Of a DNA stretch of 64,000 nt, positions 28,582 to 53,026 are shown in pieces. The notes beneath the pieces are model-generated. The model saw nothing but the letters and a program-made list of their open reading frames with translations. It searched no databases and was not told where the DNA came from. How positions within the stretch are numbered: the stretch's first letter is position 1; every line of letters starts with the position of its first letter. Both the position numbers and the translations under genes were made by a program. Origin of the DNA: Lingula anatina (lineage: Eukaryota > Animalia > Brachiopoda). The stretch spans positions 3,778,587-3,842,586 of the forward strand of contig CM120648.1 of the NCBI GenBank assembly GCA_051362555.1, in the 5' to 3' direction.

Positions 28582-28628
28582 TCAAGTTCAGTTCAAGGAG
28601 ATAGACTTATATATAAGGTTTGATAACC
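28582..28628 (+). promoter_or_regulatory. Conserved peptide-gene promoter box with TATA (copy 1)
   Basis: tcaagttcagttcaaggagatagacttatatataaggtttgataacc, homologous to the boxes at 31938, 37506, 41376 and 45415. Confidence 0.7.
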
Positions 28629-28722
28629 AAGCACCAACTTGAGACAGGTGCTATAGAGTACTGAGAAGAGAGACCAGCTTAAACAACACAAACTGAAGAA
28701 ATGGGAAGTCAACAGAATCACC

Positions 28723-28765
28723 AGGAAGACAGTGGTACTTATCCTGCTTTGTTTCGTTGTGACGG
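28723..28765 (+). pseudogene. Secreted-peptide family copy 1: signal-peptide exon with ATG changed to AGG and no second exon
   Basis: gaatcacc-AGG-aagacagtggtacttatcctgctttgtttcgttgtgacgg|gtgagtgttgtcagttg aligns with exon 1 of copies 2 and 3 (RKTVVLILLCFVVT). Intron homology stops near 29800 and no exon-2 homolog was seen before copy 2. Confidence 0.75.
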
Positions 28766-28850
28766 GTGAGTGTTGTCAGTTGTCACTTGTGAACATTGCT
28801 GTTCGTTATTCAGGAAGAAAGTCTGTCACACACTCAGTTATTATTAGACT

Positions 28851-29040
28851 GGGTTCCCATACTTAGATCGATCCATCTGGATCGACCTAACTCCCGGGGG
28901 GTTCACGCTAAATTGCTAACAGCTCAAGAGGGAGCCGAGCGCGCACGAAAGTTAATTACCCCCTAACAGCTTTTAGTAGGCGGGACAGACATCGATCCTT
29001 CCCAGGAAGATGGATCGATCCAAATATCTGTGGGAATGCT
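28851..29040. mobile_element. Small inverted-repeat insertion (MITE-like) in the copy 1 intron
   Basis: ttcccatacttagatcgatccatct / agatggatcgatccaaatatctgtgggaa imperfect TIRs. Absent at the homologous position in copies 2 and 3. Confidence 0.6.
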
Positions 29041-30319
29041 TCCTAATAGTTTCTACAAAACAACTTGTGGCCATTAAACGGGCTATTTTCCCCCACACCA
29101 ACCATTTTCACCCTTTTTATAGGTTACTGGATTATATTATATAATATTGCAATAGGACTTATAAAAAGAAATAAAGCTAAGAAATTATTTTAAGGGATGT
29201 TTTAAAATTGACAATGGAACAAATGGTAAATTATATGACGTGTGTTTGTTACACTCTTGATAAATTGAAGGAACGGGCAAGATGGTAACAGACCAAGTTT
29301 TTAAAACATTTTTAAAACTTCACCGTTGTGAGAGTCAAAAAGTGATGAACATTTAAAGAAATTAAATGCTACATGCAGGAAAAGGATTTCGAAAATGTTA
29401 AGCAGCCTCTGCTTTAATTTTCGAGAGGAAAATATATCAGTATGTTTACGTGACTCCTGAAATCAATTTTATTAATTGATCCCATTATGAAATTCTTGAA
29501 AATATGCTGTAGCAATTCCTCTTGTTTGCTTTATATTGAACAGAGCCCTAATGATAACCCTAGCAGTATTAAGGTAAAAGGAGAATCTCGCATTAATAAT
29601 TAATCAAATACAAAGCAAGCTTTCTTGGTAGTAATTAAATGTGACAGTACGTTTTCTCCAGTCTCAGTCTGAAGGTCTCATTTTAATGAAAGCGTACGTT
29701 GTAGAGAGACCAAAATTTAACATATCAATATAACAATATGTGTTTGGTGCATTTTTAACGGAGTATCTCAAAACTGCCAGAGATTAGCTTGTTTTAATCA
29801 GTAAGGCTTGCAATATTATGTTATCAGCTTTGAACGAATCTGGACCAGGCCTCCATATTATATTACTAAGTGGTGAATCATTTGATAACAGAAATGATAT
29901 ACCAGTATTGTTAATTATGCATTATAATCACTGTAAGTGACTGTGTGCAGTAAATCATTTGTCAAAAAATCACTTTAATTTTTTAATCCATATCAGCGAT
30001 GTATTTTAATTAATACTATGTTTACTAACAATTGTAAACTAAATATACCTGACTTGCCAACTCGACATGTCAGCAGCTTTTTAAAAATATGTCTGAAGAA
30101 CAGTAGTTTAAAAATTGATTTTTTTAGAGCTGTGCATGCCTAAATTTTAGTCAGTTCTTTACTTTGTGTTCGCCGTCAAACTTCTCAATTTCGAGGGGGA
30201 CCAAGTGTAAAAATGTTCTAGCACACTACGTCTAGGACAGAAGGTTTAGAAACTAGGAGTTGCTTATCACATTTTTATTTGATTGATAAATTGATTAGTT
30301 AATTTTGATTTTCATTCAT

Positions 30320-30350
<31 letters not shown>

Positions 30351-31937
30351 TCTTAAATAAATAAAATGATGGATAAAAAGACTCTCAGGGGCTTATCTAA
30401 ACTTTTCTAGTGAAAAATCTATCTAGTGCCATTGCCGATACTATAAGCATATAATTTTACCTACTGCACGCTTTTTTAGTCTTAGGCCCTTTTGGCTGTT
30501 AAGTCAAATGTTTGACATCACAGAATCAAATAGTTTTAAAAAAAGAATTTAAAAAGAAACCGATGCTTTGAAAGTGAACAAAACGTGATATGATAGGCAT
30601 TGAACATAGTGAGAGTCAAGACGAAATAAATGGGTTGCATTTTTCTTGTGTTTTTGATATTGATTTAGTTCTTTAAAACTGGGACGCGTGACCGTAGGTT
30701 TAGTGTCACTAACATATATTTAAATACTTAATAAGGGCAAGGTTACAAAAATAAATAAGCCTGTATAATAAGAAAAAATATAAAAAATGAGGATTTGCAG
30801 ATTTGCACGTGAACTGTGAATGATAGAAAGTTACCCAGGCTGGTTGCCAAGCACTGTCTTCAAATTCAAAACCTCTTTTAATTTGTTGTATTATGCCACT
30901 ATGAGAATACTAAAATGATGATATTCATTTTAAACATTAAAAGACCAACCAAAGTATTGAAAATTGTTCAATACTACATTGTTAATTGTGTCTTATGACA
31001 TTTAAGTTCCTATTTCCTTTATTTTGATATGCTAAAGTATGGAAACAAAATGTAAATATGTCTGATGACCTTAGCAACGTTGAAATCAGTATATTTTTTT
31101 ATTAGCTTTCAACAAACAAAAAATCACCTCTTTGCAACCATACGTGAAACGAGCGCAAAATTGTTTGTAAAATGCACTTGCAATACTATTACAATCTGTG
31201 CCAACAGAGTACCTAATGCTTCGAGTGATAGATCTTACTGAATATTAAGATCTAGGGTTAATTTGTAGAGCTGCATTTTTAATTACTTGCAATATCCAAT
31301 AGCAATACGAATAGTTTTTTTCCAATTTAAGCAATAAGAGGGATATTTTAATGAAAACGGCTTGATTGTAAAAATTAACTAAATCAGTTATTACCCCGTG
31401 TTTGCTTGTTCACTTATTTCCTATGTTGACAGATTGGGTGATAATGGCGATTAAATGGATAACATCACATCATATGAGATTTAATATTCCACAATAAATA
31501 CATCGTAAACAACATTTGAAATGTAATAAATTCCACTTTACTACTAAAACGCCTGCTATCTTCGTAATTATTCTCAAATAAATGCTTGCCACCGGGCCAC
31601 TTGGCTTCCCTCCGTAATATTTTTAAGAGGTTATACAAAGAGCACACTTAAAAAACAATCGGATAACTATGAATACCGGAACGGATTCAGAATTATGGTT
31701 ACCATTGGAAAATCCGTTTTTATGTCTTTCGTAAGAGCACGGCACTAGTAAGTAAAACGTTCAACATTTGATATAAATGTTAGAGGTTATATATTTTAAT
31801 AAAAACCATTTTGTCTGACAATTGACTTCATGGTATTCTTTGAGAGTCGAACAGACGCCGGTAGAGGTAGCGCTTCTAGACGTGGTCCAGCCCGTATATG
31901 TCGTCCTAAGAGCACGTTTAGGTCAAGGACGAGCACG

Positions 31938-31986
31938 CATCAAAGTCAGTTCAAGGAGATAGAGTTTTATATAAGGGTTGTTAGCC
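31938..31986 (+). promoter_or_regulatory. Conserved peptide-gene promoter box with TATA (copy 2)
   Basis: catcaaagtcagttcaaggagatagagttttatataagggttgttagcc, ~100-140 bp upstream of ATG 32080. Confidence 0.75.
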
Positions 31987-32079
31987 GAGTTCCCTCTTCA
32001 AACAGGATCTGAAGATTGCTGAGCAAAACGATATCTTTAAACAACACTACCTGAAGCGAATAAAGGCAAAGGAATCACA

Positions 32080-32569
32080 ATGAAGAGATTGGTATTTATC
32101 CTGCTGCTTGTTTGCATCATTTCGACTGGTGAGTGTTGTCAGTTGTTACTTGTGAAAATTTCTGGTCGTTAGTCTGGAAAAGAGTCTGTCGTACTCTTAG
32201 TTTTTGTAATAGGTTTTTCAAAACAACATATGGCAAGAAAAGGATATTTTTCCCAGAAGCCACTTGAGTACAATAAACAAGACAACTCGTTTTAAAAAAA
32301 TATTTGTTAGATCTATTGTATTGATTTCTGTATTTTTTTTTTCATTTTGGGTGCATTTTTAGACCTGGTTATGGAAAGCTCCCGTGGGAGTACATCATAC
32401 AGGGTTACTTATATACCAATAACTTGGTGTGGGTGTGGAGTTTCTTCAGCCACCCCCCCCCCCCCTCCAAAAAAATGTATTTAACTCCATATAAATACTT
32501 TTTTGCATTCTATATATATATATCTTGTACATATTGGAAAGAGTACACAAACCGTATAATAAAAATAAA

Positions 32570-32650
<81 letters not shown>

Positions 32651-33418
32651 AGCTCTAGGGCTCACTCATGAGCTTAAAGTAAAAAATATTTTTTGCTAAA
32701 ATTTTCACTTCAAAGACGTCAACTTCATTGCATTTTGGTCAGGTTATCTTGCGTTTTGTTTTTCTTTTATTCTTGTTAATAACTTCTTTGCGTATTTGAA
32801 AAGATATTAAGATCGTTTCCACCATTACCACCAGACCTTATTCTAGTTTACCTTAATCTCCCTGGGAAGTACTGTATGGTAAAAAATACCCGTTAATTTC
32901 AAAGGTCAGCATAAAATAATGGCAGAAATTGTGGTATTTTGCTTTCTCCATAATTGCCAAACTGGACTAGTGTTTGTTTATTTATTTATATATATATATT
33001 TATTTGGGTTGGGGGTGGGTTGTTTTTTCATTCTACAAATGTTGGTTATATGGTCTCAAAATTGATGGGCATTTTTATCTTCTTTTCATTTCGGTACATT
33101 CACTTATGATGTTGAGATAAAATTTGATTTATTTTTCATTTCAGCTCTTTAACCAAGTGATGCCCTATACTGATCTCTCACGTTATCTTGATGTGTAATA
33201 CGGTGGTACTAATTCCTTTTCTTTTTTCAGTCCTTAGAATCAGTGATGCGGTGGCCATTCCACTGTCAAAAAGAGCAAGGAACGAGAAGCAGCTGAAGTT
33301 AGACGAACGCAGTTCGCCAAGCACCGAAACTGCACCAAGCACCGAGACTGCACCCAGCACCGAGACTGCAGATGACTCTGATGACTCTGAGGACTCCGAG
33401 GAATCTGAAAGCCGTTAA
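32080..33418 (+). CDS. Small secreted Ser/Thr/acidic peptide precursor, copy 2 (78 aa)
   Basis: Exons 32080-32128 and 33231-33418 (phase 1): MKRLVFILLLVCIISTVLRISDAVAIPLSKRARNEKQLKLDERSSPSTETAPSTETAPSTETADDSDDSEDSEESESR*. AATAAA near 33912. Confidence 0.85.
32571..32649. repeat. (AAT)n(TAT)n inverted trinucleotide microsatellite
   Basis: About 13 ATA units followed by about 13 TTA units form a self-complementary hairpin. This is the source of the poly-Ile ORF. Confidence 0.9.
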
Positions 33419-34799
33419 AGAAATATGGAGCAACACACATGTATCAGCATCTTTCCTTTTGTCGAGTCGACCAAGTGCTCCCATCCGCAAGGCAACTTTT
33501 TATCTTTGTTATCATAGTATGTTCTTCATGGCTGAAGACTCTACATGAGATTTATAGTTAAACTTGAATTCTACAGCCATTGCTGCAGTCGAGAGAGGGG
33601 TTGTCTCCCAAAGAATTAGAAATATTTTCTGGAACTTAATTAAGTGTACGCCTTTTCCTTCACTGCATCACATTTCACAAGATTGTTAGTTTTGCTTGAG
33701 CTACCGTCTAGATCGGCATCACAGGCGACACAAATTACTGGATTCCAACGTTTGCAATGGGAGTGACTGAAAGTAAAATACGTGATCTTGATTATGTTTT
33801 AGCAAACAATTGGGAACTATTTTTTTTATTTTTCTTTAATTTCAAACTATATCTAATGTGAGTTGTCCTATAGTATGATTTTGTTTCAATAATCGCTTCG
33901 CTTATTCCTTGAATAAAATGAAAGCTATTAAGACAATATGTGTTTCTGTTCTATGAAATAAGAAACGAAAACAACTTACACTAGTACTTTTAATGAATAA
34001 AATAGAATAAATATATAGAAAATAATAAAAAAATCTTCAGTGAATTAGACCACAAATAAAACAGGTTGTACTCCGTTTGGTAAAAGCACCATTCTATAAG
34101 AAGACATGGATATAATATAATATAATATAATTATAATACACGGAGAAAAGCACATTGGAAAATCAGTTTATGTCAATATGGGTTTATACTGTTTATTCAT
34201 CTATGAATTAATAAAAGAATATTACGTATAACAGCCCTCAAAAATAACATGCCGTTTAACAAGAGACTACTAGGCTACATATATCCGCGTTTTGCATCAA
34301 CTACGTTTTTCTTTCGTGTTATGTAGAACAAGTGCTTTATTTCTTTTAACAAAGGAACATTTGATAAATGATTCAATGACACAATACTTTGTTATTTTTT
34401 AACTAACCCTGGTGCGGGAAGTAATATTTAAACATAATATACCTGTAAAGTAAGCATGATTACAGAAAATAATGCAATAGGTTGAAGTACGGTACATAAT
34501 TGAGTAAATGTAACAAGATATTTGAAATCACATAAAAAAAACCCAAAAGCAATTCCATCCCTGGAGCAAATTGTACAAAGGTGTTGTGGAGGGCAGTGGC
34601 AGATTAAGTTGGGCCAGGGGGGTCCTAAACCCCCCTTCGATTTCTGAAAATAAAACACCAATGGTCCCCTTTTGAAAGTAGAATTTTGACTAGCTGAATT
34701 ATAGTTCCAAACCGAACCAAATGGCACCGTTCGCCCTCTATAATACCAAAACGTTTCGAAACCCCATGCCAACTGGGGGGGGGGGGGGGGGGGGGGGGG

Positions 34800-35490
34800 T
34801 TAGAATACCAGACGACCTCCGAGGAATCCACTGTAAACACCAAAACATCGTTGTATGTTTCTCTAATGAATCGGGGACCTTGACCGTTTCTGGGTTGAAC
34901 ACTGAAACTTCGTGGCTTTCTTTATTGAGGTCAGATTTCACCTGTACCGCTTAACTAGTCAAAACAGAGTTTACAGACATCTAGAAGAGGCCAACGACGA
35001 AGCATGTGCAGCGTCGAAAGTGACTAAGGTCATTAACAGCGTCAGTAGTTGGAGTTGATACCACATTGGTGCCAAAGCACCAATGGTAGTCATCGACGAA
35101 AACCTGAACCAATTCAAACCAAGGAATAATCTGGGAACCACTTGACTATCATTTGATAGGGGGCACCTTAGGAACAATTTTAAGTTGCACGGTGAGATAG
35201 CCGGTTCACACAGAGCACTTTTAATAGCAGATTACTTACAAAACCAAGTGAATGAGCAGCTACCTTGGTCATCAAAATCGCAATATTTGAACCACATAGA
35301 CAGTATGTGGGTAGATCATTATTCGCTGAATCAATGGCCTACATGTCCTACAACAATTTGAACCAAATAGGACAGATTTTGACCGATGCCTGGAATGTTA
35401 TTCCAGATTGAACTCTAAAAACCTATCCCAAGGAATGCCTTGCCACTTGAGAGCGCTGGTAGCAGCCAGAAGAGGTCAGGCGTAACAGCG
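34800..35490 (+). mobile_element. Highly degraded Tc1/mariner transposase remnant
   Basis: Fragments read VCFSNES (cf. VLFSDES), LPWSSKSQYLNHIDSMW (cf. WPAxSPDLNPIExxW), LTDAWNVIP and ALVAARRG, with many frameshifts and stops. Confidence 0.55.
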
Positions 35491-36818
35491 ATCGTTACTG
35501 TGACTAGACACTGACATGAGGGTCCTCTGTGGAGAGTGTAACTCTTTTACAGACAATAATTTGGAAAATATGGAGATCCAAAATATCTCTTTTAATGGTT
35601 GTCGTATGACATAGAATAGGCAATGTGTTTTTGTTTGCTTCTCTGGCGAATTCCTTTAATGGACCGATGTCACAATGACATCAAAGAGATTATTAAAAGT
35701 TATTAAAACACGATTGTAATCCTTATTTTCATTTATCAGTCAGCAAAATAGGAAAAAACTGATGAAAAATGATTTGGAAAAAAAATATTCCATATTAAAT
35801 GTCAAGTCTGTATGACAAGACCGGTGTAACTGGAAGAATATGGTTCAGAGTTTGCTTTTGACATTTACGTAAAAGTCTCCAAAGGTTATTTTCTCCACTT
35901 TTTGATCGATTTTCTGACCCATTTGTGAGGAATTCAACTGGCAACCGCAAAATGAACTCAATGATGAAATCTCGTTATACATCAACCACAACTGTATTTC
36001 ATATCAGGTTTGACCTAAATGTTGATATCTAACCTGCATATTCCATAAACATGATAGAAACAGACAAGTTTCACAACTAAAATACCAGTATAACTGCACA
36101 CTCCCATTTCAGATAGGAATTGTCGGTTTTTCGAGGCCTCAGCAGAAAAAGAGTGTTTGACTAATTGGTTTGCAAACGAAAATAGGTAGGTTTTCGACCC
36201 ATTTTCATCAAGAAAAATTCTTGTATTAATAGCGTAACGACGTTAGAGTAATCGAAGTTTTGGGAAAATAATAAAAAAATATCCAAGTACCTTCAAATGC
36301 AACAAAAGTTTATTGATAGGTCTTACGTACGTGACTGACAACATGAAGTACCGGTAGCTTACATTATCTTGTGATTTAGATTGATTCAATTAAAATCAGG
36401 ACGTGCGCACATCACCTATTCAATATTACTGACACACAACTAAATAATTGATAAGGGCATACCAGCATGAAAGGATGATACACCCAACCTGACGAATAAA
36501 AGAAATAAATCAGGTCATCACGTGAACTCTGAAAGGCACAGATATGTAGACTATACTAATAATAATTAATATCTTTAGAAAATTAGGTTATCACGTGAAC
36601 TCTGAATGGCAGAAAAATTGACAATTTCTTAATAACAATTAAAATCTATAGAAAATTACTAATAAAAGGTTTAACTTTTAAGTTTTAAAGCACTGCAATT
36701 TGTTTAATGAGCCCTATACAGTTTTTGGATCTAATATAAACGTCGTAACACGCTAGGGTAATAATTTCAAAAAACAAATCGTTCTGTCTTTCAGATTGCC
36801 TATGTGGTCGAATTAACC

Positions 36819-37433
36819 CACCCTGAGCTTCAGAGCTAACTTGACACTAACCTTTTCACTGTAGCCTATCTCCATCGTGTCAAGTTACCTCTGACGAAAA
36901 TAGTTTGACCTATTTTATATAAGCCAATCGAATCCATGTTTCAAAATTTTTCACCAAAGTTTGGTGAAAACGCTGATTGGTTGATCGTCAATCGGCAATC
37001 CTCGGCTGATTCCGCAAGCTCCATACTAACAACATAGTTATTGTCGAGTGCGGAGACATCCGAGTAGTTCCGAGTGGTTCCGAGTGCATAACCGTACACA
37101 AAGAAAGCATGGAGTATATCGGAATTGAAACCAGAGCAGTATGATGCCCTGCATCATTATCTACTGAGAGACGATGTTATTTGCGTGCTGCCCACAGGTT
37201 ACGGCAAGACCCTGATATTCAGCCTTATCTTTGATTGGTCCGGATTTGAACAAAGCGCGCTTTGACTCGTTCGCGTTCATTGGCTAGATCGTTTAATGAG
37301 TCATTGAGTGCGGGCTTTTAAATTTGATTGGCGGGCGGCGGAGGCAATCGAATCTGGTCAGAGGTAACTTGACACGATGGAGATAGGCTACAGTGAAAAG
37401 GTTAGTGTCAAGTTAGCTCTGAAGCTCAGGGTG
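36819..37433. mobile_element. Non-autonomous DNA transposon (~77-bp perfect TIRs, 8-bp TSD AATTAACC) carrying a RecQ-like helicase fragment
   Basis: caccctgagcttcagagctaacttgacactaacc...ttacctctgac is mirrored at ~37357-37433. aattaacc lies at 36811-36818 and 37434-37441. Internal 37122-37238 reads ELKPEQYDALHHYLLRDDVICVLPTGYGKTLIF (Q motif and Walker A). Confidence 0.85.
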
Positions 37434-37648
37434 AATTAACCTGACCCCACGCTTAATGTTAGGGCAAAACCGGCACACCAGGTCATAAAGTCAAGAAGAA
37501 GCAGGCATCAAAGTCAGCTCAAGGGCATTGACTCCAGTATTAGAGTTGATAACCAATTTCCCGCTTCAAACAGGATATAAAGATTACTGAAAAGAACGAC
37601 TTTTTAAGACAACATCAACTGACGCGATAAAAATGCAACGGAATCACC

Positions 37649-39202
37649 ATGAAGAGATCGGTGCTTATCCTGCTGCTTCTGAGCATCATTTCGACGGGTG
37701 AGTGTTGTCAGCTGTCAATTGTGAAAATTTCTGTTAATTATTCAGAAAAGAGTCACACACTCTTTTAATGTGATAGTTTCTTTACAACGACTTTTGGCAA
37801 TTAAAAGGGTTATTTTCCCCCAGAAGCAACATTTTCCTCCTTTACTGGATTACATTTTATTTTTATCGATAGGACTTAGAAAAAGAAAAAGCTTAGAATA
37901 TTTTTAAAATCTACATGGGGACAGATGTGAATTGTCGGTAAATTGTCAATTAACGTTATACTGCTGTGGGAGTCAAAAAGTGATAAACATTTATATAATA
38001 AAATTGTAGAAGAGGAATTCTGAAAATGGTCGGCAGATTTTTTGCTTTAATTTTCAAGAAGAAAACAATCGAAAAAAATCCACTCCGCCATAAAATTCTT
38101 GAAAACATTCTGTAGAAATTCTTTTTGTTAACATTATGTTGCACATTATGCCCATATGATTTCCTCAGCAGTATTCAGCAACAAGGAGACGCTCTCTTCA
38201 ATTATTAATCAAATATAAAACGAGCTTTCTTGGCGGTAATCAATTGCGCTTTTTTTCCTGTCTCAGAGACGCTTTAAAAGACGAAAATATAGTATATCAA
38301 CGTTAGCCAATATATGTTTTGGGCTCTTGTAACAGAGTAGTATCTTAAGACCATGAGAGGTAAGCTTGGCTCTAACGATATACCATGCAGCAATATGCTA
38401 TCTGCTTTGGCTAAGTAGGTCTTAAAGCTAGTGACTCAACTGTAAATCGAGAAACAAAGTGACGGTGTTAAGGCCAAAGATTTTGAATACAGAGAATCAG
38501 TAGACTAAATTACATTTTTGCCAGATACTTTTGTGCTCTGCTTTTCTTTTCTTCTTCTTAAACATCTTTGCGTTTTAAAAAGATACTTTTGCATCGTTTG
38601 CCCCATAATTGCATGACCCTGTTCTGGTTTTACTTTAGAAACTCACTGGGAAGTTGTGTATGGCAAAAGTGCAGGTTAATGTGGAAAGTAAGCATAAGTA
38701 TAATAATGGCAGGAATTAATCTATTTTGCTTTCTCCTAACTTCCATATTTTGCATATTTTGTTTAAATATTTTTTTATTGTAGAAATGCCGGTTATACAA
38801 GTTTTAATGCTTTTAAGATTGATGAATATTTGTTTCTTATTCTTTTTGGGTACATATATTCACTTCTGGTGTTTTAGCAATTAAATTTGATTTTTTAATT
38901 TCAATTCAACACTTTTACCTTCTGGTATTCCAATGTTATATTTCGATTAATTTAAATATGAAATACGGTGCTACTGATTCTTTTTAGTCATTAGAAATAG
39001 TGATGCAGTGGTCATTCCACTATCAAAAAGGGCACCCAAGAGGAAAACGATTAAAGCCAACGTAAAGGGGTCGTCACCAAGCACCGGAAGCGCACCAAGC
39101 AGCGAAAGTACACCAAGCACCGATGGTCCACCATGGATTGGCCTAAAAGATTATGGTACAACACACATGTTTCAATACCTTTCCCTTCGCCAAGTTGACT
39201 AA
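37649..39202 (+). CDS. Small secreted peptide precursor, copy 3 (87 aa; C-terminus extends into former 3'UTR)
   Basis: Exons 37649-37697 and 38988-39202: MKRSVLILLLLSIISTVIRNSDAVVIPLSKRAPKRKTIKANVKGSSPSTGSAPSSESTPSTDGPPWIGLKDYGTTHMFQYLSLRQVD*. Promoter box at 37506. Confidence 0.78.
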
Positions 39203-39805
39203 GTGCGTCCATCTGCAAACCTACCTGATAATCTTTTTAACTTTGCTAAGCAACGGTTGAGGACTCTTTATGAGAATCATGGTTTAACTTGAATCCTACA
39301 GCTGTGGCCTGCAGTCGAGGGGTGTTTCCTCCCTATGAATTTTTAATATCTTTCGGATTTTATTAACTGTAAGCCTTTTCCTTCAGTACATCGCTTCACA
39401 AGTTTGTTAGTTTTGCATCTGCCACCATGTCGATGGGTACCACTGGAGAGGCATACAATATAACTGGAATCCAACAGTTCAGAATATATGAAAGTGCTAC
39501 CTGACCTGGACAGGGTTTAAGAAACAATACGAAGCAATTTCCTGATTTATGATTTTATATATTAAAACGGATCTGATAAGGGGTTTCATGTTATGGAGTT
39601 TCATTATATTTCGATTTCTTCGCTTTATGCATGAATAAAATGTTAACCAAAGCAATAAAACTGTTGTGGCCGTTTGTTTCGGTAAGGTGAGATAGAAATT
39701 AACTTATTAATGTACAGTGTAGTGCTTTTTATGAACAAAAAAATAATAGTACTACTTAATGATATATATGTAGAGCACAAATAAAACTATTGCTTTGATA
39801 AAGGC

Positions 39806-39850
39806 ATAATATAATATAATATAATATAATATAATATAATATAATATAAT
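39806..39850. repeat. (ATAAT)n pentanucleotide repeat at a homologous position downstream of copies 2, 3 and 4
   Basis: Also at ~34110-34137 and ~43991-44044. Confidence 0.85.
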
Positions 39851-41335: not shown

Positions 41336-41522
41336 ATTAATCCTAGGCTCACGTGTAGTTCCAAGGCTGATCATGCATCAAAGTCAGTTCAAGGAGATTG
41401 CCTACTACATAAGGGTTGATAACCAACCTCTGACTTCAAACACGACTCTAAGTTTACCGAGAAGGAAGGTCTTTTTAAACGACACCAACTGAAGCGAAAT
41501 AAATCTTACCTACGAAATCAAT

Positions 41523-42939
41523 ATGAAATCATCGGTGGTTATCCTGCTTCTTGTTTGCTTTGCTGCGACGGGTAAGTATAGTCGATATTTAGAAAATGAT
41601 TTGGTCAACTGTGCTCAACAGTAAGTTAGTAAGCTCAATACCATATGCATATATTGATGTTCAAATAGTTTTAATCTTAGAGGCTTGTTCACTGAAGTAC
41701 AATGCTGTAAAGGGATGATTTTATATTAGTCAGATAAGATTTTAAATAATTGGTAGACTGGCGTAAGTTGTTCTTTATGACTTTACAGTTATTTCTCAAT
41801 AAATTCGACAGATATATTTATCAGCTATAACTCCCAAAATATTTTGGTAGTAATTATAACAGATGTTGACACGATATACTTGAAAAAACTAATACAGAAA
41901 GTCTTGTATCAAAATGTCTCGATTAGTTATAACATTAGAAAAGAGAAGCTTCCGAAAATTTTCAGCAAATACCGTACATGATGTTAACCACCCTCTCTGA
42001 TATCCCTGCTTCTAATTTAAGATTAACGAAGAAAACTTACTGGTTTGCCTGCAAGACTCCACTAACCAGTTTCATTAATTGACCCGCCAATAAATTCTTG
42101 AAATTAATACTGTATTTCTTCTTCTTTTGTAAATTATGTTCCACGAAGGCCTTATGATCATCTTTGCAGTCTTCAACTAAATAATTAATCGAATATGAAA
42201 CAAGCTATGCTCATGATGTGACAGCGATTTTTCTGAAGTCTCACTAGGCTATAAAGGTTAGACTCAAACAATATAATTGACATATGAGAAAGGTGATCTG
42301 ATATCTTCTGGTATAAAAGAATCAAATATATCTAATATAACAAATACTAAACATTCTGTGACGTGATATTAGGCCTATGGTATTTCAATATTATACCTTG
42401 ATACTGAACATCGTGCAGTTGGTATTCTGTGGTATGCTTCAATTGCCACAACTGAACGTGGTTAGCAATGCGACATTATGTGCAGATCTAGGGACTGTTT
42501 CACATAAAACTTAAAGACAATACTTATACCTAATTCTTATTCGACTGAGGGTTATTCAACCTAATTGCATTTCCTAGATAATTTTGAGTATTTTTCTTTC
42601 AAGGTATTTTTAATGGATTGCCCATAACTGCCAAGCTGTAATCTGATTTACTTACAGTGAAATTTGTGTGCCAAAAATGAAGATAAAAGTTGGCATAAAA
42701 TGCTGTAATACCACGATTTTTTTTCTTGTATTTTGGACACGATCCATGTTTTCTGTAATTGCAAAACGTATTTGTGTTCTATTTAAAATTTGTAGATGTT
42801 TTCTATTGTAAAATACTGGTCAAGTTAAAATGGTGCCTTGATTGTTGAACAATTGAAAGCATTAATGCCTTTCTCCTCGTGTATACCAGTTCTATAGTAA
42901 TAATTTCTCATACAACGACTTCCGTAATACAATGGCTTG

Positions 42940-42998
<59 letters not shown>

Positions 42999-43557
42999 GG
43001 GTTGTCGAGACGCCCTTCTTACTTATGGGGTGCAAATGTGACCGGATGATAAGTTGTCACCGTTTTCACGCTTATTGTATCACGTGGGTCGAATGAGCGT
43101 GGAATATAAATTCCCCGCGCTACTTCTTATACGTGTCATTTCTTCGGTCATTTTTGCCTCTGTCATTCGTCAGATGTACTTTATATTAAATAAAGGAGCT
43201 GATATGGAAACTAATGTGCATGTCAATATATATCGAGTTACATTTTTATTTTCGGATATTTACATTCATACCTGGCACTGAGACAATCTTTACACCATTT
43301 CCGGTGAAAGTAATGTATAATTATCTGTATTGTGTATATGCCAGCTGTCCCAAATTCGTCTTTCGGCTTATCCTGGTGAGCAATACAGTGCATTTCATTC
43401 CTTTTCAGTTATTCTAAATGGTGAAGCAGTGAACATTCCACTATCCATAAAAGCATCGGTCGGAGAGGATGAAAACTTGAAAGACCAAATAGAGCCACGA
43501 AGCAGTTCAGGGTCCTCACCAAGCACCGAAAGCTCAGAGAGCTCTGAAAGCCGTTAA
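41523..43557 (+). CDS. Small secreted Ser/acidic peptide precursor, copy 4 (65 aa)
   Basis: Exons 41523-41571 and 43409-43557: MKSSVVILLLVCFAATVILNGEAVNIPLSIKASVGEDENLKDQIEPRSSSGSSPSTESSESSESR*. Promoter box at 41376. Confidence 0.85.
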
Positions 43558-45563
43558 ATGGATATCGAACAACGCGCATGTATCAGCTTCTTTCCCTTCG
43601 TCCAGTCAACCAATTGTGTCCATCTGTAAAACAATCTGATCCACTTTTTAACTTTGCTAAACAATGGTTGAGGACTCTACACTTAACACTTGTTTATCCT
43701 ACGTTCTACCTTCAGAGACGTAGCCTACAGTGAACGCCCCCCCCCCCCTTAGTGGAGGGGTTTGATAAAAATGACAATATTTAAGAAACAATTGGAAAGC
43801 AGTTATATTACTGCATTTATTAACATTCTGAATGGGTAAGATTTGGAGCTTTATGCTCTTATATCTACGGAACTATTCTCTTTCACTTTCATAATGTAAA
43901 ATGATGTTGTTTCAATTTATTACTGTACCTCTTGCTTAAATAAAGTCTTTGCTGGAGATATGCGTTTCAGTGATCGGAATAAAACATTTTAATATAATAT
44001 AATATAATATAATATAATATAATATAATATAATATAATATAATATGCATTCGTAATAAAGTCTCAGTTTTGTAATTTTTAAAAATAAATTTTCTATCAGG
44101 GATTCACCAAGATACTTTGCAGTAATTAGAATAATAATAAAACTGGGAATTGTCGTTTAAATTACCAGCAATTCTTATAGTTCCCAATGGTATGTTGCCC
44201 ATGTTAAGCATCATTTGACAACTTGGCGAATTCAAGAGCTTAATGATATGAGATTTTTATGGCAACAAAAAAAGCTTTGGGAATAATCAAAACAGGCCTA
44301 TGTGTCTTAAAAGCTAAGAAAGCGTGATACATAAGTTGTGTAAATAAAGTAAGCGCAATAAGGTTGGCGCCAGAAGAAACGGGATACACTTTTCTGCTGT
44401 TCTGATATAGTTATGGAGCAAGCACACTTTAAGCGTCATTGACATAAATCTAAATACTTGATAAGCGTCGAGGTTACCAGTACAAAATGGTGGATAAAGC
44501 CCATCCTGTGTTATATTATTCACAAAACGAAAACTAAGAAAGTTTGCTCTGTCGTGTTCTTTTCAAATCTGGAGCTGAAGTAGGCCAAATTAAATAACAA
44601 ATAAACATATTTTAAGTCACATTTCCACGTGAACTGTGAATGGCAAACCTTGCTCTGGAAGGCTGACATTACTTTCAAATGGGGAAAAACCTTGTTAAAT
44701 AGAGTAAAAGAAATTCAATCCCATAAGTGAAAGCCTAAGTTTTTTATTGTGCCTCACTCATAATTAAATTTTATTTACAGTTTGACTTAGGCTTTCAATA
44801 CCATCACGTTCTCAAAGCAATGGTGTAACATATATTGCTTGCTCCCCCAAAAATCTTTGAAAAAATTGAAAAAGATCCAATATATTGTGAAGCAACGAAA
44901 ATGTGATAAGATTTAGTTTGAATATATCAAGTGCAATAAAATTTGTGCCTAGATTGAATTGGTTACATTTTTAGCAGGTTATTTGTTGAATTATAGTTCC
45001 TTTATAGGCCTACTGGTCGCAGCTGAAGCTGCGCAAGCATAAATCAAAATAATTAGTGGTCGTTGATACTTTTTAGAAAATGCATAATATGGAATTGAGG
45101 TGTGACAACCTTTTCGATGAGGATTAAAGAGGTACAGATTGGTATAAAATTTAAAAATAAGTTACATAAAGAACACAAAATGCTGCCTTCATACTTTTAC
45201 CTAGATGTCACGAGGTTAACTGTTTATGGCACCAATATAAATTACTCACTTTCACGTGAATTGTACGTGGAGGAAATAGCTCGGGCAGGCTGCCAAACGT
45301 TTTCGTCAAATAAGGAAATCACTTATTAAAAAATATCACATGATCTGAACGCCAAGGCAAAGGTACTATTGATAGTTTGCCCCATGATCACGATTTGCTT
45401 CAAGGACGAGCATGCATCAAAGTCATTTCAAGGATAACAAACGCAATATAAGTGTTGAAAATCACACTTCCACTTTAAACAATACCTAGAGATAATTGTG
45501 GAGAATACTGCCTCTAAAAATATATCAACTGAATCGAGAAAAGGACATATTTACGAAATCACT

Positions 45564-47766
45564 ATGAAGACGTTGGTACTTTTTCTGTTGCTCGTTTGCT
45601 TCATTGTAACGGGTAAGTATTGTCACCTCTGAATTTGTCATTTTATATACAGAAAGTCATTTTATTAGCTAAGTTATACATTAAGTCTCTGTAATTGTAA
45701 CTTGAAATGATCTTCTGGAGTTACGATACATGAAGGTCCCATATTACTGATGCCGGTTTGAAGAAACTGTTGAAACATGGTGTCATGCTTATTTTCTTAA
45801 CAAATGCCATAGTTGCATTTGTTTTGAGTTTCTTTAAGACTGAACAGTGGAATTCTTTATGTGCATTACTTTTATTCACCTACACACACTGGACAAAAGA
45901 AGTGTCACCCTTACTGAGCCAATACTATGGGGGAGATAAATGACTGTGGAATGATATGCTCCTGGTATCATTTTATTACCATCAAATTTCACAATAAAAT
46001 CACAAAATGAGAACAAAATATACATTCTACCAAAATATGCAATTTCAACTCCAAAATTAGTACTTAGTGGCATAGCCACGTGGCCTAATAATAGGTGCCA
46101 GTCTACGAAGCAAGGATTCGTATAATTGTCTGATGCGTTCAGGGCTTATGCTGGCCCAAGCATGAAACACTGAATATAACAGAGTTTCTCTGCTTGTTAG
46201 ACGGGCATTTGTCCAAAGTTTTGACATATCATTCCACGCATTCTCTATTATGTTTGCATCCGGACTCTGGGCAAGCCACATCACCCTGCGAATGTCGTGT
46301 TGGTCAAACCAAGGAGTTATAACTCCTTGGTCAAACCAATCATCAACTGCTCTGGGCCTGTGACAAGGAACATTGTCATCCTGGTGAACAAATGGATATT
46401 CCTGTCACCAAACATGTTAGTAATAGATGGTACCAAGCATGACTCCAAAACATCGATATATTTCTAGTGATTCATGTTTTCATCAACCACTATCAATTCG
46501 CCCACGCCATGGATGCTGATGCAGCCCCACACCATGATGAATATGCTGCTCCGGGTTCGAAAATTAAGTACATGTGGTTTAAATGCTTTACCAGCAGTTC
46601 GCCAGCATTGTACCCGTCTGTCATCAGAGGTCAGACCAAAGCGACACTCATCAGAAAGAAATATATAGGACCAATTGTCATGGACTGTCCAGTTCCAGAT
46701 CCTGTTGACCCTAGTTCACTCCACGTTGCCCGTTTTGTAACGATATAAGAGGTTTCAGTCTTGCTACCCTGCTGTACACTCTATAAGCATGTAACCGACG
46801 CCTAGCAATTTTCACAGACACATTCTTATCTGTGAAATTGTTCCACTGTGTTGTCAACTGACAAGCAGTGTCGAACTTTGACAACCTGGACATCAAAATC
46901 AGTCGTCGGTCTTCACGGCCAGTAGTTTTTCTTGGACGACCCATCAGAGACAATTTGTCTCTTGATCAAGTGTTTCTATACCGAGACCAGACCCTCTGCA
47001 CGGTTCTGACTAAACAATTCAATTGTATCGATATACTGACATTACTTATATTCCGCCTCTTCAGGTTAATAACTTGCACCTATAACCGTTAGATAATTAC
47101 CTGTATCTTGCCATATTGGAGGAAGACAGGAATAACATACATTAACTGTACATGTCCAAGACCAACAATACAATTCCATGGTATAGCAGTTTTATACTCA
47201 TTAGTCACATTATAAGTAGACCAGGCATTATAAGTACCCAAGATCTGCCTACTTTTATTGCTCTGAGTTAGGGGGTGACACTTCTTTTGTCCAGTGTGTG
47301 TAGTACTGCACGATGTTCCTCACAATGCTCTCAAATAATCAAGTTTTTGCCTAAAGTAAGAAAGCATATATTACATTACATTCTTGATGCCTGAAAAAAA
47401 ACCTTTTATACACACTGTTGTGCGCGCGTTTTGTAAATATCTTTATATATATAAAATAGTGAAAGGCTTTGGTCAAAAAAATATGCATGCCGCTGAAAGT
47501 TTCAATATTCCATACGTTTTTTGTACGTGTCTGCCTGCTGCTCAACTTCCCTTTGATCCCGCTGAATAAAACAGAACGTTTATTTTTCAGTCATTAGAAG
47601 TGGCGATACATCGGCCATCCCGCTGTCAAAAAAAGCGGGAAGCAGATTTAGCGGAGAGCAGATTGAAGCCAAATACAGTAGGTGGGCATCAATCGACCCA
47701 CGTGAGCTACGCACCACAAGTCCGGAGCTCCTCGAAGACTTTGACGCCGTCCCCACATTTAATTAA
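45564..47766 (+). CDS. Small secreted peptide precursor, copy 5 (74 aa; Tc1 element in the intron)
   Basis: Exons 45564-45612 and 47591-47766: MKTLVLFLLLVCFIVTVIRSGDTSAIPLSKKAGSRFSGEQIEAKYSRWASIDPRELRTTSPELLEDFDAVPTFN*. Promoter box at 45415. Conserved 3'UTR block aactttgctaagcaatggttgag near 47838. Confidence 0.78.
45883..47300 (-). mobile_element. Full-length but inactivated Tc1/mariner transposon
   Basis: TIRs cacacactggacaaaagaagtgtcaccc at both ends with TA duplications. Broken transposase at ~47114-46057 includes GRPRKTT, QDDN.PCH and WLAQSPDANIIENAW...GYATKY, with frameshifts and stops. Confidence 0.93.
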
Positions 47767-47989
47767 TTTGGATCAACTGACACACGTGGACATCCTTCCC
47801 AGTAAGACCATCCGCAAACGAAGCTGATTATCTTTTGAACTTTGCTAAGCAATGGTTGAGAACTCTACATAAGCATCTTTCTTAACTGGCATCATGCAGT
47901 TCGGACCGGAAGTCTCTTATATGTTCTTCGGTAATCGGCTATTTGAGCAAGAGCGCTGAAGTTAGTGTCTAGTTTCTAGTTTCCAATTT

Positions 47990-48223
47990 CGTTTTTCAAA
48001 AACGAACCTGGCAACCAGAAACTAGTGTCGTTTTTCAAAAACGAACCTGGCAACCAGAAACTAGTGTCGTTTTTCAAAAACGATTCTGGCAACCAGAAAC
48101 TAGTGTCGTTTTTCAAAAAACGATTCTGGCATCCAGAAACTAGTGTCGTTTTTCAAAAACGATTCTGGCAACCAGAAACTAGTGTCGTTTTTCGAAAAAC
48201 GATTCTGGCATCCAGAAACTAGT
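47990..48223. repeat. 39-bp tandem minisatellite, six units, internally palindromic
   Basis: Unit cgtttttcaaaaacga(ac/tt)ctggcaaccagaaactagtgt with no spacers between units. Confidence 0.92.
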
Positions 48224-48389
48224 ATTTTCAAGGTTTTTAAAAGACATCAACAAACATTTTATTTCAAGTTAATGCAATCAATTTTTCTTTTTATGTGAAA
48301 TGAAAGTCAGTGACAACAAAAATATAATTTTTGAAATAAATCCTATATTGAATCATCTTGTATAGGCCCACGTTACGTTTCACGCAGCC

Positions 48390-48810
48390 CTCACATAGCA
48401 GTATATTCAGCTAAATAAATTACTCACCTCAAAAATTAATCAAATATGAATCGTTTTTTCATGATGTGACAGAGATTCTCTCGTCACACCAAAACCACTT
48501 AATTGACATACAAATATCATCTAAGCAGTATAATCAGCTAAATGAATTATTCGCTTTCATAGTTATTCGAATACGAATCAACTTTTTGACAGATGTTTTT
48601 TCTCCAGTCACACCAAAACCATTAATCCACATTATAGAAATATGATTAAAGTTTTTTCAATTATTTTTGCATGGATTCCTCATTACTACAAGATTCTTAT
48701 CTTGTTTTACTTGAAACTTACTTCAATTTATTTCAGATGTGTAAGGAGAGATGAAGGCCTACTTCAAAAGGTTGACATAAAATACTGCGAAAGAATGTGG
48801 CATTTTGCAT
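48390..48810 (+). repeat. Orphan fragments of the peptide-gene intron (partly duplicated), without exons
   Basis: aattaatcaaatatgaa...atgatgtgacag matches ~42183-42245 and occurs twice. 48650-48800 matches ~42590-42720, ~38580-38720 and ~32800-32940. Confidence 0.6.
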
Positions 48811-51327
48811 GTAGACCGCTTCTCCTATTTTTTAAATAGTGTCATAGTTGATAAACGGTATAAACTTTTGGTCCTTTTTTGCTCAGGATTCCCAGTTCTA
48901 TCACAATGACATCTGATCCAATGGCGCATTCACAACCAGTTGATCCGCGGACTAAGACATCCGAGGATCAAAATATGGCCGCTCTACTTGAAAGCTTAAC
49001 TCCTTAATAGACACTGAATAGATTCGATCGCGCCAGGGATCACGCGACAGACCTTCAAGTGGATCAACTTTGATTGTGAATGCGGTCAGTGGCTCCTCTA
49101 GCACAATGGATTGCTTCTGTCGTGTTTTCACTTGATGCCCTTCAAGAATATAATATGTGTAGACCCAGTTATATATTATATTGTACACAATGAAATTATA
49201 GAAAATATTAAAATAGTTAACATTTTGAGGGAGCAACAAATCAATGAAACGCAACCTGTACTTTGAATTGGTAAGAAAAGGGCAATTTATTTAAAATTAT
49301 TATTCACTTCGAATAATTTAGTACGTTTTGATATCTATGATTTGGGTTTCGTTTGAATGGCTGTGCGAAAATGATGAAAGTGAAATATTGTTTCCATTAA
49401 TAAATAGAATAGGATGATATCTTTAAATTTTAACAAAATCCTCTAACACATCTATCTCTGAGTAAGTTGCAATGTCTTTGTAGGAAAGAAAAGCAGTTTT
49501 GATGATTTCATTCTCTGATATTTTTTTCATGAAAAATGATAACCTATGCTATAACTGTAAACAGACTATACGAAAAGCTAAAGTATGGCACCGTGATAGG
49601 TGTTGATTTTTTCATCATTTATTGGAAACCCGCATATCCTTGTTCTCTGTCATGTTGTGGAATCGACCGTTTAAATTATGAAACGCAGTGAATCATACAG
49701 CTAGGTATCTGTGTCGTTAGATTAAATAGGCCTGTCTTCAAGCTGGTCCATGTGTCCTTAATTGTCTTAAAACTGAATGGCAAAACACTGAGAAGACAAA
49801 AGTCGTTTGGGAAGCTTACATCTTCTGGTTTAAATTAATTAAATTTAGGCAATGAAAAACAAGCATCTAGAGACAGATGTATTCCCGAACCATTTATTAA
49901 TTGTGACTTTTGTTACCAGAATTGATATGAATATTGTTGTTGTTGTTGTTGTTGCGGCTGTTATTGCATATTGACGTACACCTTAGGACAGGCAGGTGGG
50001 GAAGACTTTCGTGAACATTCTCGAGTGGCAAACTGAATTCAATAATGCTGTTGTGGATCTTAGAATTAAATGATTATAATCAAAATGCAGCTGACTTGAG
50101 TGGTGAGAGACGCTGTGCACTTAATCGACCTTATCGGCCTGGCTGACCTGTGTCTTCACTTCGCCGACCTAGCTGTGTGTACAGCATTTGTCACCATGCA
50201 ATAAGCTGATTAAAATTTGGAAAAATGCCCAGTAAAATTATACTGTCTTTTCGCGTGTTTCTATCCACAACTAATGTTGTTCTATATTTTAAATATATAT
50301 TGCCGAAGGCCTCAGTATGCACGTAAAACAACTGTGTAGATTTACACAAGTGACCCGCTTCAATGGAAGCCGATCTCGCTTGTACAGCGCAAGTAATTTC
50401 CTGCCAAGTAACGTATTCAACAAAATGTTTCCATTTTCCCACACCAAGAAGGCGTATCTAAACACACATTGCATCGGAAATACATAGGAAAAGAAAGTAA
50501 CACAAAAATGCACGTTGTAGATACAGAAGGACATTCGAAACCTCTGTCTATACATGTTTGTTCAATCTGAGTCCGTGCCCTCAGTTAAAACTAAGGTTGT
50601 TCGTGACTAAATCACTGTTCAAACTATACTTATTTATTGCAATAATATATGAATCAATATCATCCAAGGTAAAGGTATAATTAACACTATTAATGCCCCG
50701 ATTGCTTAAACGTTGGCTTTAAAAGACTATCAATGCCATATTTTGGCTAAGTTGAGAAAGAGATGGCAAATTGAAAATCAACATTTAAAAAATATCATGA
50801 TGTTGTGTATATAATCCCACAGATATTTAAAAAGAAGGGGTAATTCCAATGCACAGTCGAGGGTTGATTGTGAGTTCGCTTTGCTCTAACCAGCAAAGGG
50901 CATCCCCGTAGCAGACCCTTGTTTTGTTCCAGGCGCTTTCTTTCTTTTAGACTGCTTTTTACTGCTTCCTGTTTGCACTCACATTGTAAAGGGACCGAAA
51001 ATAAATGCGTCCAATGCAGTAACTGACCTTGTAACTTGGTACAATGACATTACCATCGTTAATTGTTCTCAAATCAATGCCAGAACTATTCCAATTATAA
51101 AACCGCGTCATCTGGAACGCAAACAGTTGTATCAATAATGAAGCATTTAGGTTAATGATGCTAGTCTTCTGTCAAGGTTATGTGGTTGGTGTTCAAGACA
51201 TGGAGGTGAATCACAGGCCCGACACCTTCACTAAGACGTTGTCTTTTCCCCTCATGCCCAGCTACTCCTCTTCCATCGATTTAAAAAACCACACCCAAAC
51301 ACGCTTGGGATTTACAGGGTACACGTA

Positions 51328-51768
51328 CACACATTGGACAATAGAAGTGCCACCCCCTGTATCAGAGTAATCAAAGTTATAATGCCTAGTCTACTTATAA
51401 TGTGACTAATGAGTATAAAACCTCTGTACCATGGAATTAATTGTTTTGTTGGTCTTTTTATGTTTAATGTTAATAAAGGCCCCTTTACACTGGATAGCGG
51501 CCTTTGTGCGACCATGAAACTGGCAACGCTGTGGTCTTAGAAAGGAGGCACAATCATCGCTTTTGATACAGAATGAATGGTCAAGATCGGCCAGTTGTCG
51601 GCACGTGAAATATCATATTTTATTTTACTTTCAAACGGGGCCGTACTGCAGGACGCAGAAAGGACGCCGTCCAGTGTAAAGAGGGCTTAAAATGATACCA
51701 GGAGCATATCCTTCCACAGTCATTTATCTCCCGCAAAGTATTGGTTCAGTAGTATTGTCCATTGTGTG
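51328..51768 (+). mobile_element. Internally deleted derivative of the 45883-47300 Tc1 family
   Basis: 51328-51460 matches the reverse complement of ~47155-47300 (ataatgcct.gtctacttataatgtgactaatgagtataaaa). 51692-51768 matches the reverse complement of ~45883-45971 (atgataccaggagcatatc.ttccacagtcatttatctcc). TA flanks. Confidence 0.85.
51477..51687. mobile_element. MITE, PIF/Harbinger-like (copy 2), nested in the Tc1 derivative
   Basis: Homologous over its length to 18715-18937, with TAA on both sides. Confidence 0.85.
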
Positions 51769-52195
51769 TAGGTCTTTGTTCGGTATCTCCATGTGGTCAT
51801 TACCCCTCTCTGTCCGCATTTCGATAATGTTACGATTTATGTTCTAAATATGCTGTTCTTTGATACGAATTATCAACAAAAAAGCTTGATTAAATTGCAA
51901 AATATTTATTTGCTCGAGAATTGTTTAGAGCTGAAAAAGCAAAAAATGTTCAATCTTCTGATTGTTACAAATTGCAATTTTACGTGTACGAAACGTTTAC
52001 CTCCGCCGTTCATTAAGTATTAAAAACTGTAACGCAAACTGTTGGTGACACGCCTTCTTGAGTTAAACACATAAATTACGGTGATTTAGGGCTGATTTTC
52101 AGTTGAGAAGGTTCGAAGGGAAGACTTCATTCAACAGCTTATCTACGAGACCAAGATATCGGTGCCATTGTCGCTTCAGAGTTCCAGTATCAAAT

Positions 52196-53026
52196 ATGAA
52201 GACCGCTATTGTCTTACTCCTGGTTTGCCTTACAGTAGCAGGTAAGTTAAATGTAGCGATCGTCGTTGAATTGAAAAACCAATTTACCATTATAATTATT
52301 ATCGTTATTATCATTATTATAATTATTGGACTTTTAAGTCTGCAACAGTTAATTAGCATTCACGGAATACGTAGGCTCAAACAGCTTTGAGTATTCAAAT
52401 ATGAGTAGGTTCATATATTGTACAAATGTACGGCATAAATTTTATCTGTGAAATAATGTGAAATTATGTACTTATGGAAATTTTTCTTATAATGTGTGAA
52501 CCCAAATCTGTCAAGCACTCAATAATTGCTGTTTCACGCTCGGGATAGTAACTTTTATTGCCCATAACTAAATAGTCAATTAACTTATAAATTGGGTAAA
52601 TACTAATAGTATCTTTCCTTAGAAGTAAATCAACATAAATTTGCTGCATTTTTTAACGTTTGCTGAGTTTTTTACTTACTTGTTTTTTTTCTTTTGGGAC
52701 TATTGTTTTTAATATTTTTTAATTCTTATATTCATTATTTTTTATACTAGTAAATCATTTCACTTTTGGATTTAAATTCAACGGCTACCTCGTATATACA
52801 TATTTTTTCAGTTTCTGCTATTCATATTTGAATAAGTGTTACACAAATGCGTTTTACTTCAGCCTTTGCCAAACCCGGTAGAAAGATACGCAGTCACGGC
52901 GAAAGTACCCACAGTACTCAGTCGCCGACTTCTGCTCCGAGCACGCCGTCACCAACTTCTGCTCCGAGCACGCCGTCACCAACTTCTGGTCCAAGCACGG
53001 ACACCCCTGACGATGACGAACAATAG
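52196..53026 (+). CDS. Small secreted Ser/Thr/Pro-repeat peptide precursor, copy 6 (divergent member, 69 aa)
   Basis: Exons 52196-52241 and 52863-53026 (phase 1): MKTAIVLLLVCLTVAAFAKPGRKIRSHGESTHSTQSPTSAPSTPSPTSAPSTPSPTSGPSTDTPDDDEQ*. Furin-type RKIR site and 27-bp coding repeats. Confidence 0.82.

Follow-up and report, generated by a model that had tools for sequence, protein, structure and literature searches.

A tandem array of genes for very small, predicted secreted Ser/Thr-rich and acidic peptides in Lingula anatina and its possible part in shell secretion

What might a cluster of genes for minute, probably secreted peptides do in an animal whose shell is made of fluorapatite (PMC13425148)? 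The question is raised by a 64,000-nucleotide stretch of the genome of Lingula anatina (assembly GCA_051362555.1, contig CM120648.1, positions 3,778,587 to 3,842,586; 'the window', whose own numbering is used here), in which six small units, c1 to c6, follow one another on the plus strand. Among invertebrates, Lingula is the principal model for skeletons of calcium phosphate. A first-pass annotation, made from the letters alone, had proposed that these units form a same-strand array of five intact two-exon genes and one pseudogene; we re-found all six at the same coordinates and on the same strand, and spliced transcripts at the predicted junctions, on which that proposal turned, were found for c2, c4, c5 and c6.

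Gene structure, expression and coding constraint

Six of ten RNA runs were mapped (X1, X2, X5, X8, X9 and X10), X5 over positions 28400–47950 only and X9 and X10, which come from one study and hence are not independent, over 48300–64000 only. Most reads were 90–95% alike to the window and derive from other animals or populations; the splice joints and base differences reported are those among the rows listed. Reads matched the exon joints of four units exactly. In X8 the c2 joint was crossed by 4,709 reads (an allelic exon-1 end included), that of c4 by 3,429 and that of c5 by 112, while the c6 joint was crossed by 12,367 reads in X8, 11,042 in X9 and 9,936 in X10. Splicing of c2 was also present in X1, an older contig set, at a contig depth of 50. 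Joint reads divided by bases read, for an assumed mean transcript of 1.5–2.5 kb, give a rough share of mRNA of about 0.9–1.9% for c6 (1.1–1.9% in X8) and, in X8, of 0.4–0.7% for c2 and 0.3–0.5% for c4. Depth was zero over c2–c6 in X2, which also had no c6 joints, and zero over c2–c5 in X5, yet repeats in the window drew thousands of reads from both runs. Expression is high and sample-restricted, and the cluster is co-expressed.

Units c2 to c6 each hold an open two-exon frame of 65–87 codons. As had been predicted, a signal-peptide exon of 46–49 coding nucleotides is followed by a phase-1 GT-AG intron; the motif IPLS(K/I)(R/K)A is found in c2–c5 and RKIR in c6, and no product has a Cys past the signal peptide. 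Tandem repeats have a period of 18 nt in c2 and 27 nt in c6. The annotated pseudogene c1 and the five open frames stand; c3, counted there as intact, is decayed. The final ∼20 codons of its frame correspond to 3′ untranslated region (UTR) in c2 and c4, its acidic tail is lost, and CAA replaces its stop codon in X1 as well as in 15 of 15 X8 reads. We reject it as a working member on account of the read-through tail, an isoelectric point (pI) of 10, the CAA stop and a bin depth of 0 over its first exon in X8, and the number of working genes is better put at four than five. X8 also contained a hybrid transcript in which the c1 donor is spliced to 36113 (23 reads) and the cryptic exon beginning there onward to c3 exon 2 (18 reads); its longest open reading frame (ORF) is at most 35 codons.

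The coding parts are conserved while the 3′ UTRs drift. Between the X1 contig of c2 and the window, at most 1 of 188 exon-2 coding bases differs; among 336 UTR bases, 22 or more do (Fisher p ≤ 6e-4, with 6 gap letters unplaced). All six coding length changes examined in c6 were multiples of three, whereas UTR indels mostly are not; among the c6 reads, three single-base deletions together amount to one codon and the repeat gains 54 or 81 bases, so that repeat-number changes are in frame. An X8 allele of c2 has altered tail letters and retained acidity (read loose end at 33370). A second c6-like form, in X8, X9 and X10, lacks KPGRKIR and is 21 or 48 bases shorter, in frame; its mature chain would start about where cleavage after RKIR would place it, which suggests that the basic N-terminal piece of c6 is dispensable. 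That transcript (52241–52940) amounts to between a few percent and about one tenth of the main form in the same three runs and is probably a further paralogue or allele; its first bases resemble an unused acceptor at 52812.

Kinship, shared promoter block and searches for homologues

Self-comparison of the window identified c1–c5 as duplicates across promoter and exon 1, and c2–c5 also across exon 2 and the 3′ UTR; pairwise protein comparisons within c2–c5 gave z-scores of 13–30 against shuffles. About 900 bases far upstream of c1 and of c2 are also duplicated (27647–28532 and 30421–31279, with 26712–26917 and 30072–30287; 70% identity) and mark the duplication unit. For c6 the protein z-scores against c2–c5 are only 2.9–5.7, likeness upstream and in the 3′ UTR is absent, and exon-1 DNA likeness reaches p = 0.004 to c5 and 0.024 to c4 and lacks significance against c2 and c3. 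The link of c6 to c2–c5 is thus weak, and it is counted in the family for where it lies, its intron phase, the likeness of its signal peptide and its co-expression. Reads at the predicted joints, the shuffle z-scores and the coding constraint rule out chance ORFs.

The best-conserved 5′ window among c2–c5 is a promoter block, GCATCAAAGTCA-nn-TCAAGG, in which 16 of 20 columns are invariant, compared with at most 12 of 20 within the signal-peptide code. The pattern occurs four times in the 64 kb, once for each of c2–c5, and was not found at c6. It sits 45–65 bases upstream of the c2 5′ end, and the X1 contig of c2 starts at 32000, 30 bases below a TATA-like box. ATCAAAG is presumably a TCF/LEF-type site, by prediction only. 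TCAAGG, the core of the FTZ-F1/SF-1 consensus PyCAAGGPyCPu (PMC3630131), makes the block a candidate FTZ-F1/SF-1-like element with a partial match to that consensus.

The annotation recognised no homologue, and three protein searches as well as Pfam and PDB yielded none. A profile of the five exon-2 peptides gave no match at E ≤ 1 among 2,172 candidates (of 26–123 aa only), exon 2 of c6 alone gave none at E ≤ 10 among 45, and a HMMER scan over 1.84 billion representative proteins returned no acceptable homologue. Two HMMER matches, one an ORF of 58-aa repeats and one an Fn3 array, were rejected, their scores being sums over weak repeats whose best stretches reach 5.0 and 11.4 bits; two PDB matches (E 0.47 and 0.96) were also rejected. 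No Pfam family was matched by any of the five peptides at E ≤ 0.1, and no Rfam family in positions 27000–55000. As a local control, the profile scored the window's own peptides at E ≤ 1.6e-11; since a neighbouring L. anatina transporter is present in the searched protein collection, the peptides themselves are evidently missing from it. Within the collections searched, a lineage-restricted family is supported. A literature search, whose reach excluded subscription papers and some data spreadsheets, found no description of it, and as far as searched the family is undescribed; the available parts of PMC13121700 and of bioRxiv 10.64898/2026.03.09.710468 hold nothing on it, and PMC9057340 nothing on small acidic proteins.

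Table 1. Coordinates of the units, exons and promoter blocks in the window
Feature	Position	Strand	Remarks
c1 promoter and exon-1 remnant	28582..28765	+	AGG for ATG at 28723; two codons shorter; donor intact at 28765; no exon 2 of its own
c2 promoter block	31937..31956	+	GCATCAAAGTCA-nn-TCAAGG; upstream of TATA-like box at 31970; 5′ end about 32000
c2 coding exon 1	32080..32128	+	bulk of predicted signal peptide; phase-1 donor
c2 coding exon 2	33231..33418	+	IPLSKRA, PSTETA x3, Asp/Glu/Ser tail; 3′ UTR to AATAAA at 33912
c2 spliced ORF	32080-32128/33231-33418	+	78 aa
Cryptic 73-nt exon joining c1 exon 1 to c3 exon 2	36113..36185	+	23 and 18 X8 reads
c3 promoter block	37505..37524	+	
c3 coding exon 1	37649..37697	+	bin depth 0 in X8
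c3 coding exon 2	38988..39202	+	acidic tail gone; frame continues into former 3′ UTR
c3 spliced ORF	37649-37697/38988-39202	+	87 aa
c4 promoter block	41375..41394	+	
c4 coding exon 1	41523..41571	+	
c4 coding exon 2	43409..43557	+	IPLSIKA, Ser-rich stretch, STESSESSESR tail
c4 spliced ORF	41523-41571/43409-43557	+	65 aa
c5 promoter block	45414..45433	+	
c5 coding exon 1	45564..45612	+	
c5 coding exon 2	47591..47766	+	IPLSKKA; no clear repeat
c5 spliced ORF	45564-45612/47591-47766	+	74 aa
c6 coding exon 1	52196..52241	+	read 5′ ends 52111-52118; no c2-c5 promoter block
c6 coding exon 2	52863..53026	+	RKIR, 27-nt repeat x2.9 (SPTSAPSTP), DTPDDDEQ tail; AATAAA 53708; read ends 53717
c6 spliced ORF	52196-52241/52863-53026	+	69 aa

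Predicted products and their possible role

The first exons encode a basic N-end and a hydrophobic core (best nine-residue Kyte-Doolittle mean 3.5–3.8), with small −3/−1 residues in c2, c5 and c6 and a weaker fit to the IPLS site in c3 and c4. Assuming cleavage before IPLS (c2–c5) or KP (c6), a placement inferred without SignalP, the predicted mature peptides have 40–62 residues, 4–7 kDa, no Cys and 2–27% hydrophobic residues. That of c2 has 53 aa, a pI of 4.25, 28% Asp+Glu and four S-x-E motifs; c4 about 40 aa, pI 4.38, 20% and three; c5 49 aa, pI 5.18, 16% and two; and c3 6% and one. The c6 peptide (51 aa, pI 5.38) has 41% Ser+Thr, 20% Pro, 12% Asp+Glu, 14 Ser or Thr adjoining Pro, and no S-x-E. 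An Asp/Glu-rich region is found in c2, c4, c5 and c6 and not in c3, and lies in the C-terminal half in c2, c5 and c6, where basic residues gather toward the N-end and acidic ones toward the C-end. The processing proposed in the annotation would be compatible with a basic KR, KK or RK site after the signal peptide in c2, c3, c5 and c6; the highly expressed c4 has none. The C-terminal pieces free of Lys and Arg are 35, 18, 17 and 44 aa long, with no basic sites between the repeats. A single-sequence AlphaFold model of c2 exon 2 had no secondary structure and a predicted template modelling score of 0.13, which is weak evidence of disorder.

A mineral reading is raised by the host being a calcium-phosphate biomineraliser. 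The explanation that we tentatively favour is that c2 and c4, if phosphorylated, or c6, if O-glycosylated, are calcium-phosphate-binding peptides of the shell-forming secretion, SCPP-like by convergence. Removal of the signal peptide would leave 40–53 residues, from which a short basic N-terminal piece might be trimmed; a Golgi kinase of the FAM20C type would phosphorylate S-x-E and primed serines, up to five each in c2 and c4, and c6 would be O-glycosylated. The phosphorylated tails would then act as a small polyanion that coats or stabilises amorphous calcium phosphate and apatite granules, or limits apatite grains, much as vertebrate SCPP/SIBLING peptides do, via convergence rather than descent. 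Pearl oysters express FAM20C at the mantle edge and need it to form normal shell crystals (review PMC7948968; FAM20C in oyster shell also in PMC5824888), and the lingulid shell is rich in glycosaminoglycans (PMC11006422). Luo et al. (2015) reported that Lingula has one SPARC and no SCPP genes and, unexpectedly, found no secreted acidic shell proteins (pI < 4.5) when matching peptides to gene models (PMC4595640); the products of c2 and c4, at computed pI values of 4.25 and 4.38, would lie below that limit. A bolder and more doubtful version holds that Lingula independently evolved an SCPP-like cluster of tiny acidic FAM20C-phosphorylated peptides that gene models and shell proteomics both failed to reveal and that would be its missing apatite controllers.

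The likeness to vertebrate systems has limits. The array resembles the acidic SCPP/SIBLING genes and the elasmobranch Scpp genes (PMC9122587, PMC11244640) in being a tandem cluster whose predicted secreted products evolve fast and align poorly, and it shares with them a signal peptide, an Asp/Glu-rich region, S-x-E motifs in c2–c5 (in numbers not above those of shuffles), a host with calcium-phosphate mineral and the lack of a Kazal or calcium-binding SPARC domain (no Pfam family in any of the five exon-2 peptides). The S-x-E density is 7.5 per 100 aa in c2 and c4; 1.8 per 100 aa has been reported for shark Scpp (PMC9122587). SCPP genes have a common exon-intron layout that goes back to the 5′ exons of SPARC-L, and their coding introns are in phase 0 (PMC9122587), whereas each open gene of the array has one phase-1 intron within the signal peptide, after 46–49 coding bases, confirmed by reads in c2, c4, c5 and c6. 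The array also has no sequence match to them, and c6 has no S-x-E. Within the 64-kb window, no SPARC-like gene was among the seven flanking ORFs scanned (TRIM, a G-protein-coupled receptor (GPCR) with SMB and 7tm_2 domains, MFS). For the phase-1 rather than phase-0 intron, and with no SPARC among those flanking ORFs, we reject SCPP membership. Statherin, casein-type peptides and MEPE-ASARM are acidic phosphopeptides, and they resemble the array in very small size, basic and acidic halves and a Ser/Asp/Glu-rich end; they differ in having no homology to it, so that the resemblance is of composition only.

Several observations weigh against a role in the shell. The S-x-E kinase motifs that the annotation had emphasised are indeed present in c2–c5 and are absent from c6, and the counts (4, 1, 3, 2 and 0 in c2–c6) do not exceed those of composition-preserving shuffles (p = 0.07, 0.16, 0.27, 0.10 and 1.0). 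The expressing runs bear coded labels without tissue, so that mantle expression is a supposition, and read depth over the neighbouring GPCR and transporter genes is close to 0 in each of the four runs mapped there, which leaves the silent runs without a housekeeping control. Luo et al. list 14 novel shell proteins of 103–253 aa with pI values of 4.9–10.3 (Supplementary Table 26, PMC4595640), mostly basic and Ala-rich; like the array these are lineage-specific, secreted, small and in some cases tandem, and they differ from its Ser/Thr-rich, acidic products of 65–87 aa, which are not on that list. The array peptides were absent among the 2015 shell proteins viewed, the shortest novel one of which has 103 aa (PMC4595640), and 12 array motifs had no match in the whole supplement of the 2026 shell proteome of Chen et al. 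(PMC13425148), a study that combined a 12.5% gel with tryptic digestion and searched gene models, allowing Met oxidation as its sole variable modification. The acidic tails fall in Lys/Arg-free pieces of 35, 18 and 44 aa and would be missed by such proteomics if modified. But c4 and c5 would yield ordinary, unmodified tryptic peptides of 7–17 residues, and non-detection is therefore excused only if the gene models lacked these genes. Finally, c6, the most abundant copy, has no S-x-E and a mucin-like make-up: the species sharpens the mineral idea, yet the most abundant copy points towards mucus.

An alternative that we regard as somewhat unlikely follows from that last point, namely that the peptides are short, mucin-like, probably O-glycosylated glycopeptides of mucus or cuticle, which glands of the mantle margin, lophophore or pedicle would release in bulk to line the burrow, bind particles or lubricate, and which would not take part directly in mineral growth. 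Mucins are large proteins with VWD/Cys-rich or SEA/membrane domains. The array shares with mucin-type glycopeptides the Pro/Thr/Ser tandem repeats and an allelic repeat number (c6, c2); the composition of c6, its variable repeat number and its zero S-x-E fit this explanation, as do a share of 1–2% of mRNA, which suits bulk secretion, and absence from the two shell lists in the parts available. According to Luo et al. (2015; PMC4595640), mantle and pedicle of Lingula are both secretory, with mucus among the products of the mantle. Unlike mucins, however, the products are tiny (mature 40–62 aa; 4–7 kDa), Cys-free and without any Pfam, VWD or SEA domain, hence without gel-forming domains, and they have an acidic tail; in c2 and c4 this is a Ser/Asp/Glu block, as is typical of ends that are phosphorylated and bind ions, rather than a Pro/Thr/Ser core. 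Adhesives of the DOPA (3,4-dihydroxyphenylalanine) type were rejected on the basis of 0–2 Tyr per peptide, with none in c2, c4 and c6.

We consider it distinctly unlikely that the array serves an internal organ (digestive gland, gonad, nephridium or coelomic cells), where it would keep calcium phosphate soluble or coat gametes. All-or-none expression between runs would suit such a source, and so would the TCAAGG core of the promoter block, since the FTZ-F1/SF-1 class of receptors is tied to gonad and gland function. That predicted match, however, is partial, and c6 is co-expressed in X8 without the block.

Neuropeptide precursors hold conserved short peptides between basic cleavage sites, often with an amidation Gly. 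A signalling or defence precursor (neuropeptide, pheromone or antimicrobial), a role the annotation had allowed for, would fit the signal peptide, the small size, the KR/KK/RK sites of c2, c3, c5 and c6 and the tandem duplication with fast change, and is nevertheless very improbable: basic sites lie near the N-end only, no basic cleavage sites separate the repeats, which lie in one Lys/Arg-free piece (C-terminal pieces of 35, 18, 17 and 44 aa), the mature peptides are acidic and 2–27% hydrophobic, mRNA levels are far above the general neuropeptide norm, and none of six array motifs occurs in the supplement of a brachiopod neuropeptide survey whose coverage of Lingula is unverified (PMC8557429).

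Were the independent SCPP-like cluster true, it would represent molecular convergence with vertebrate bone and teeth and would overturn the picture of Lingula as an animal that mineralises without secreting acidic proteins. The favoured shell-secretion explanation supplies named, synthesisable candidates of 40–53 residues for apatite control; should the shell role fail, the array would still be an undescribed major brachiopod secretion, encoded by genes of under 100 aa overlooked by annotation.

Flanking genes and inserted elements

Downstream of the array lie a single-exon receptor frame of 1,020 codons with somatomedin-B and 7tm_2 domains (56209–59271, plus strand; almost no reads in four runs) and, on the minus strand (60272–62129), the MFS transporter 'mch1', 403 of 404 residues identical to L. 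anatina XP_013416987.1, with a best match from another source of 49%. RefSeq has near-identical transporter proteins on one scaffold of 562,781 bases and another of 128,399, which may be two haplotypes or a duplicate. Upstream are a TRIM-type gene (11895–15282, plus strand), in which a Gln/Pro/Ala-rich insertion of ∼190 residues splits the RING finger and two B-boxes come next, then a long tail of low complexity, and a Ser/Pro-rich frame of 172 codons with a YENV motif and no Pfam match (9423–9941, minus strand), probably an exon of a further gene.

Several repeats have entered the array. Just upstream of the c3 promoter, a 627-base element (36813–37439) has 83-base terminal inverted repeats (97.6%), the 8 bases AATTAACC at both flanks and an N-terminal fragment of a DEAD-box helicase (Pfam DEAD, E 3.5e-05, below cut-off); it appears to be a non-autonomous helicase-bearing DNA transposon, copies of which are transcribed in X2 and X5. 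The c5 intron contains a Tc1/mariner-type remnant (45880–47303) with 31-base inverted ends and a DDE_3 fragment (E 2.9e-05, below cut-off), and reads of shorter copies skip 45994–47158. In the c1 intron, a small inverted-repeat insert resembling a miniature inverted-repeat transposable element occupies ∼28860–29045, where the depth in X2 and X5 comes mostly from other copies. Downstream of the c5 stop (47969–48223), a partly self-complementary 39-base unit is repeated six times in tandem.

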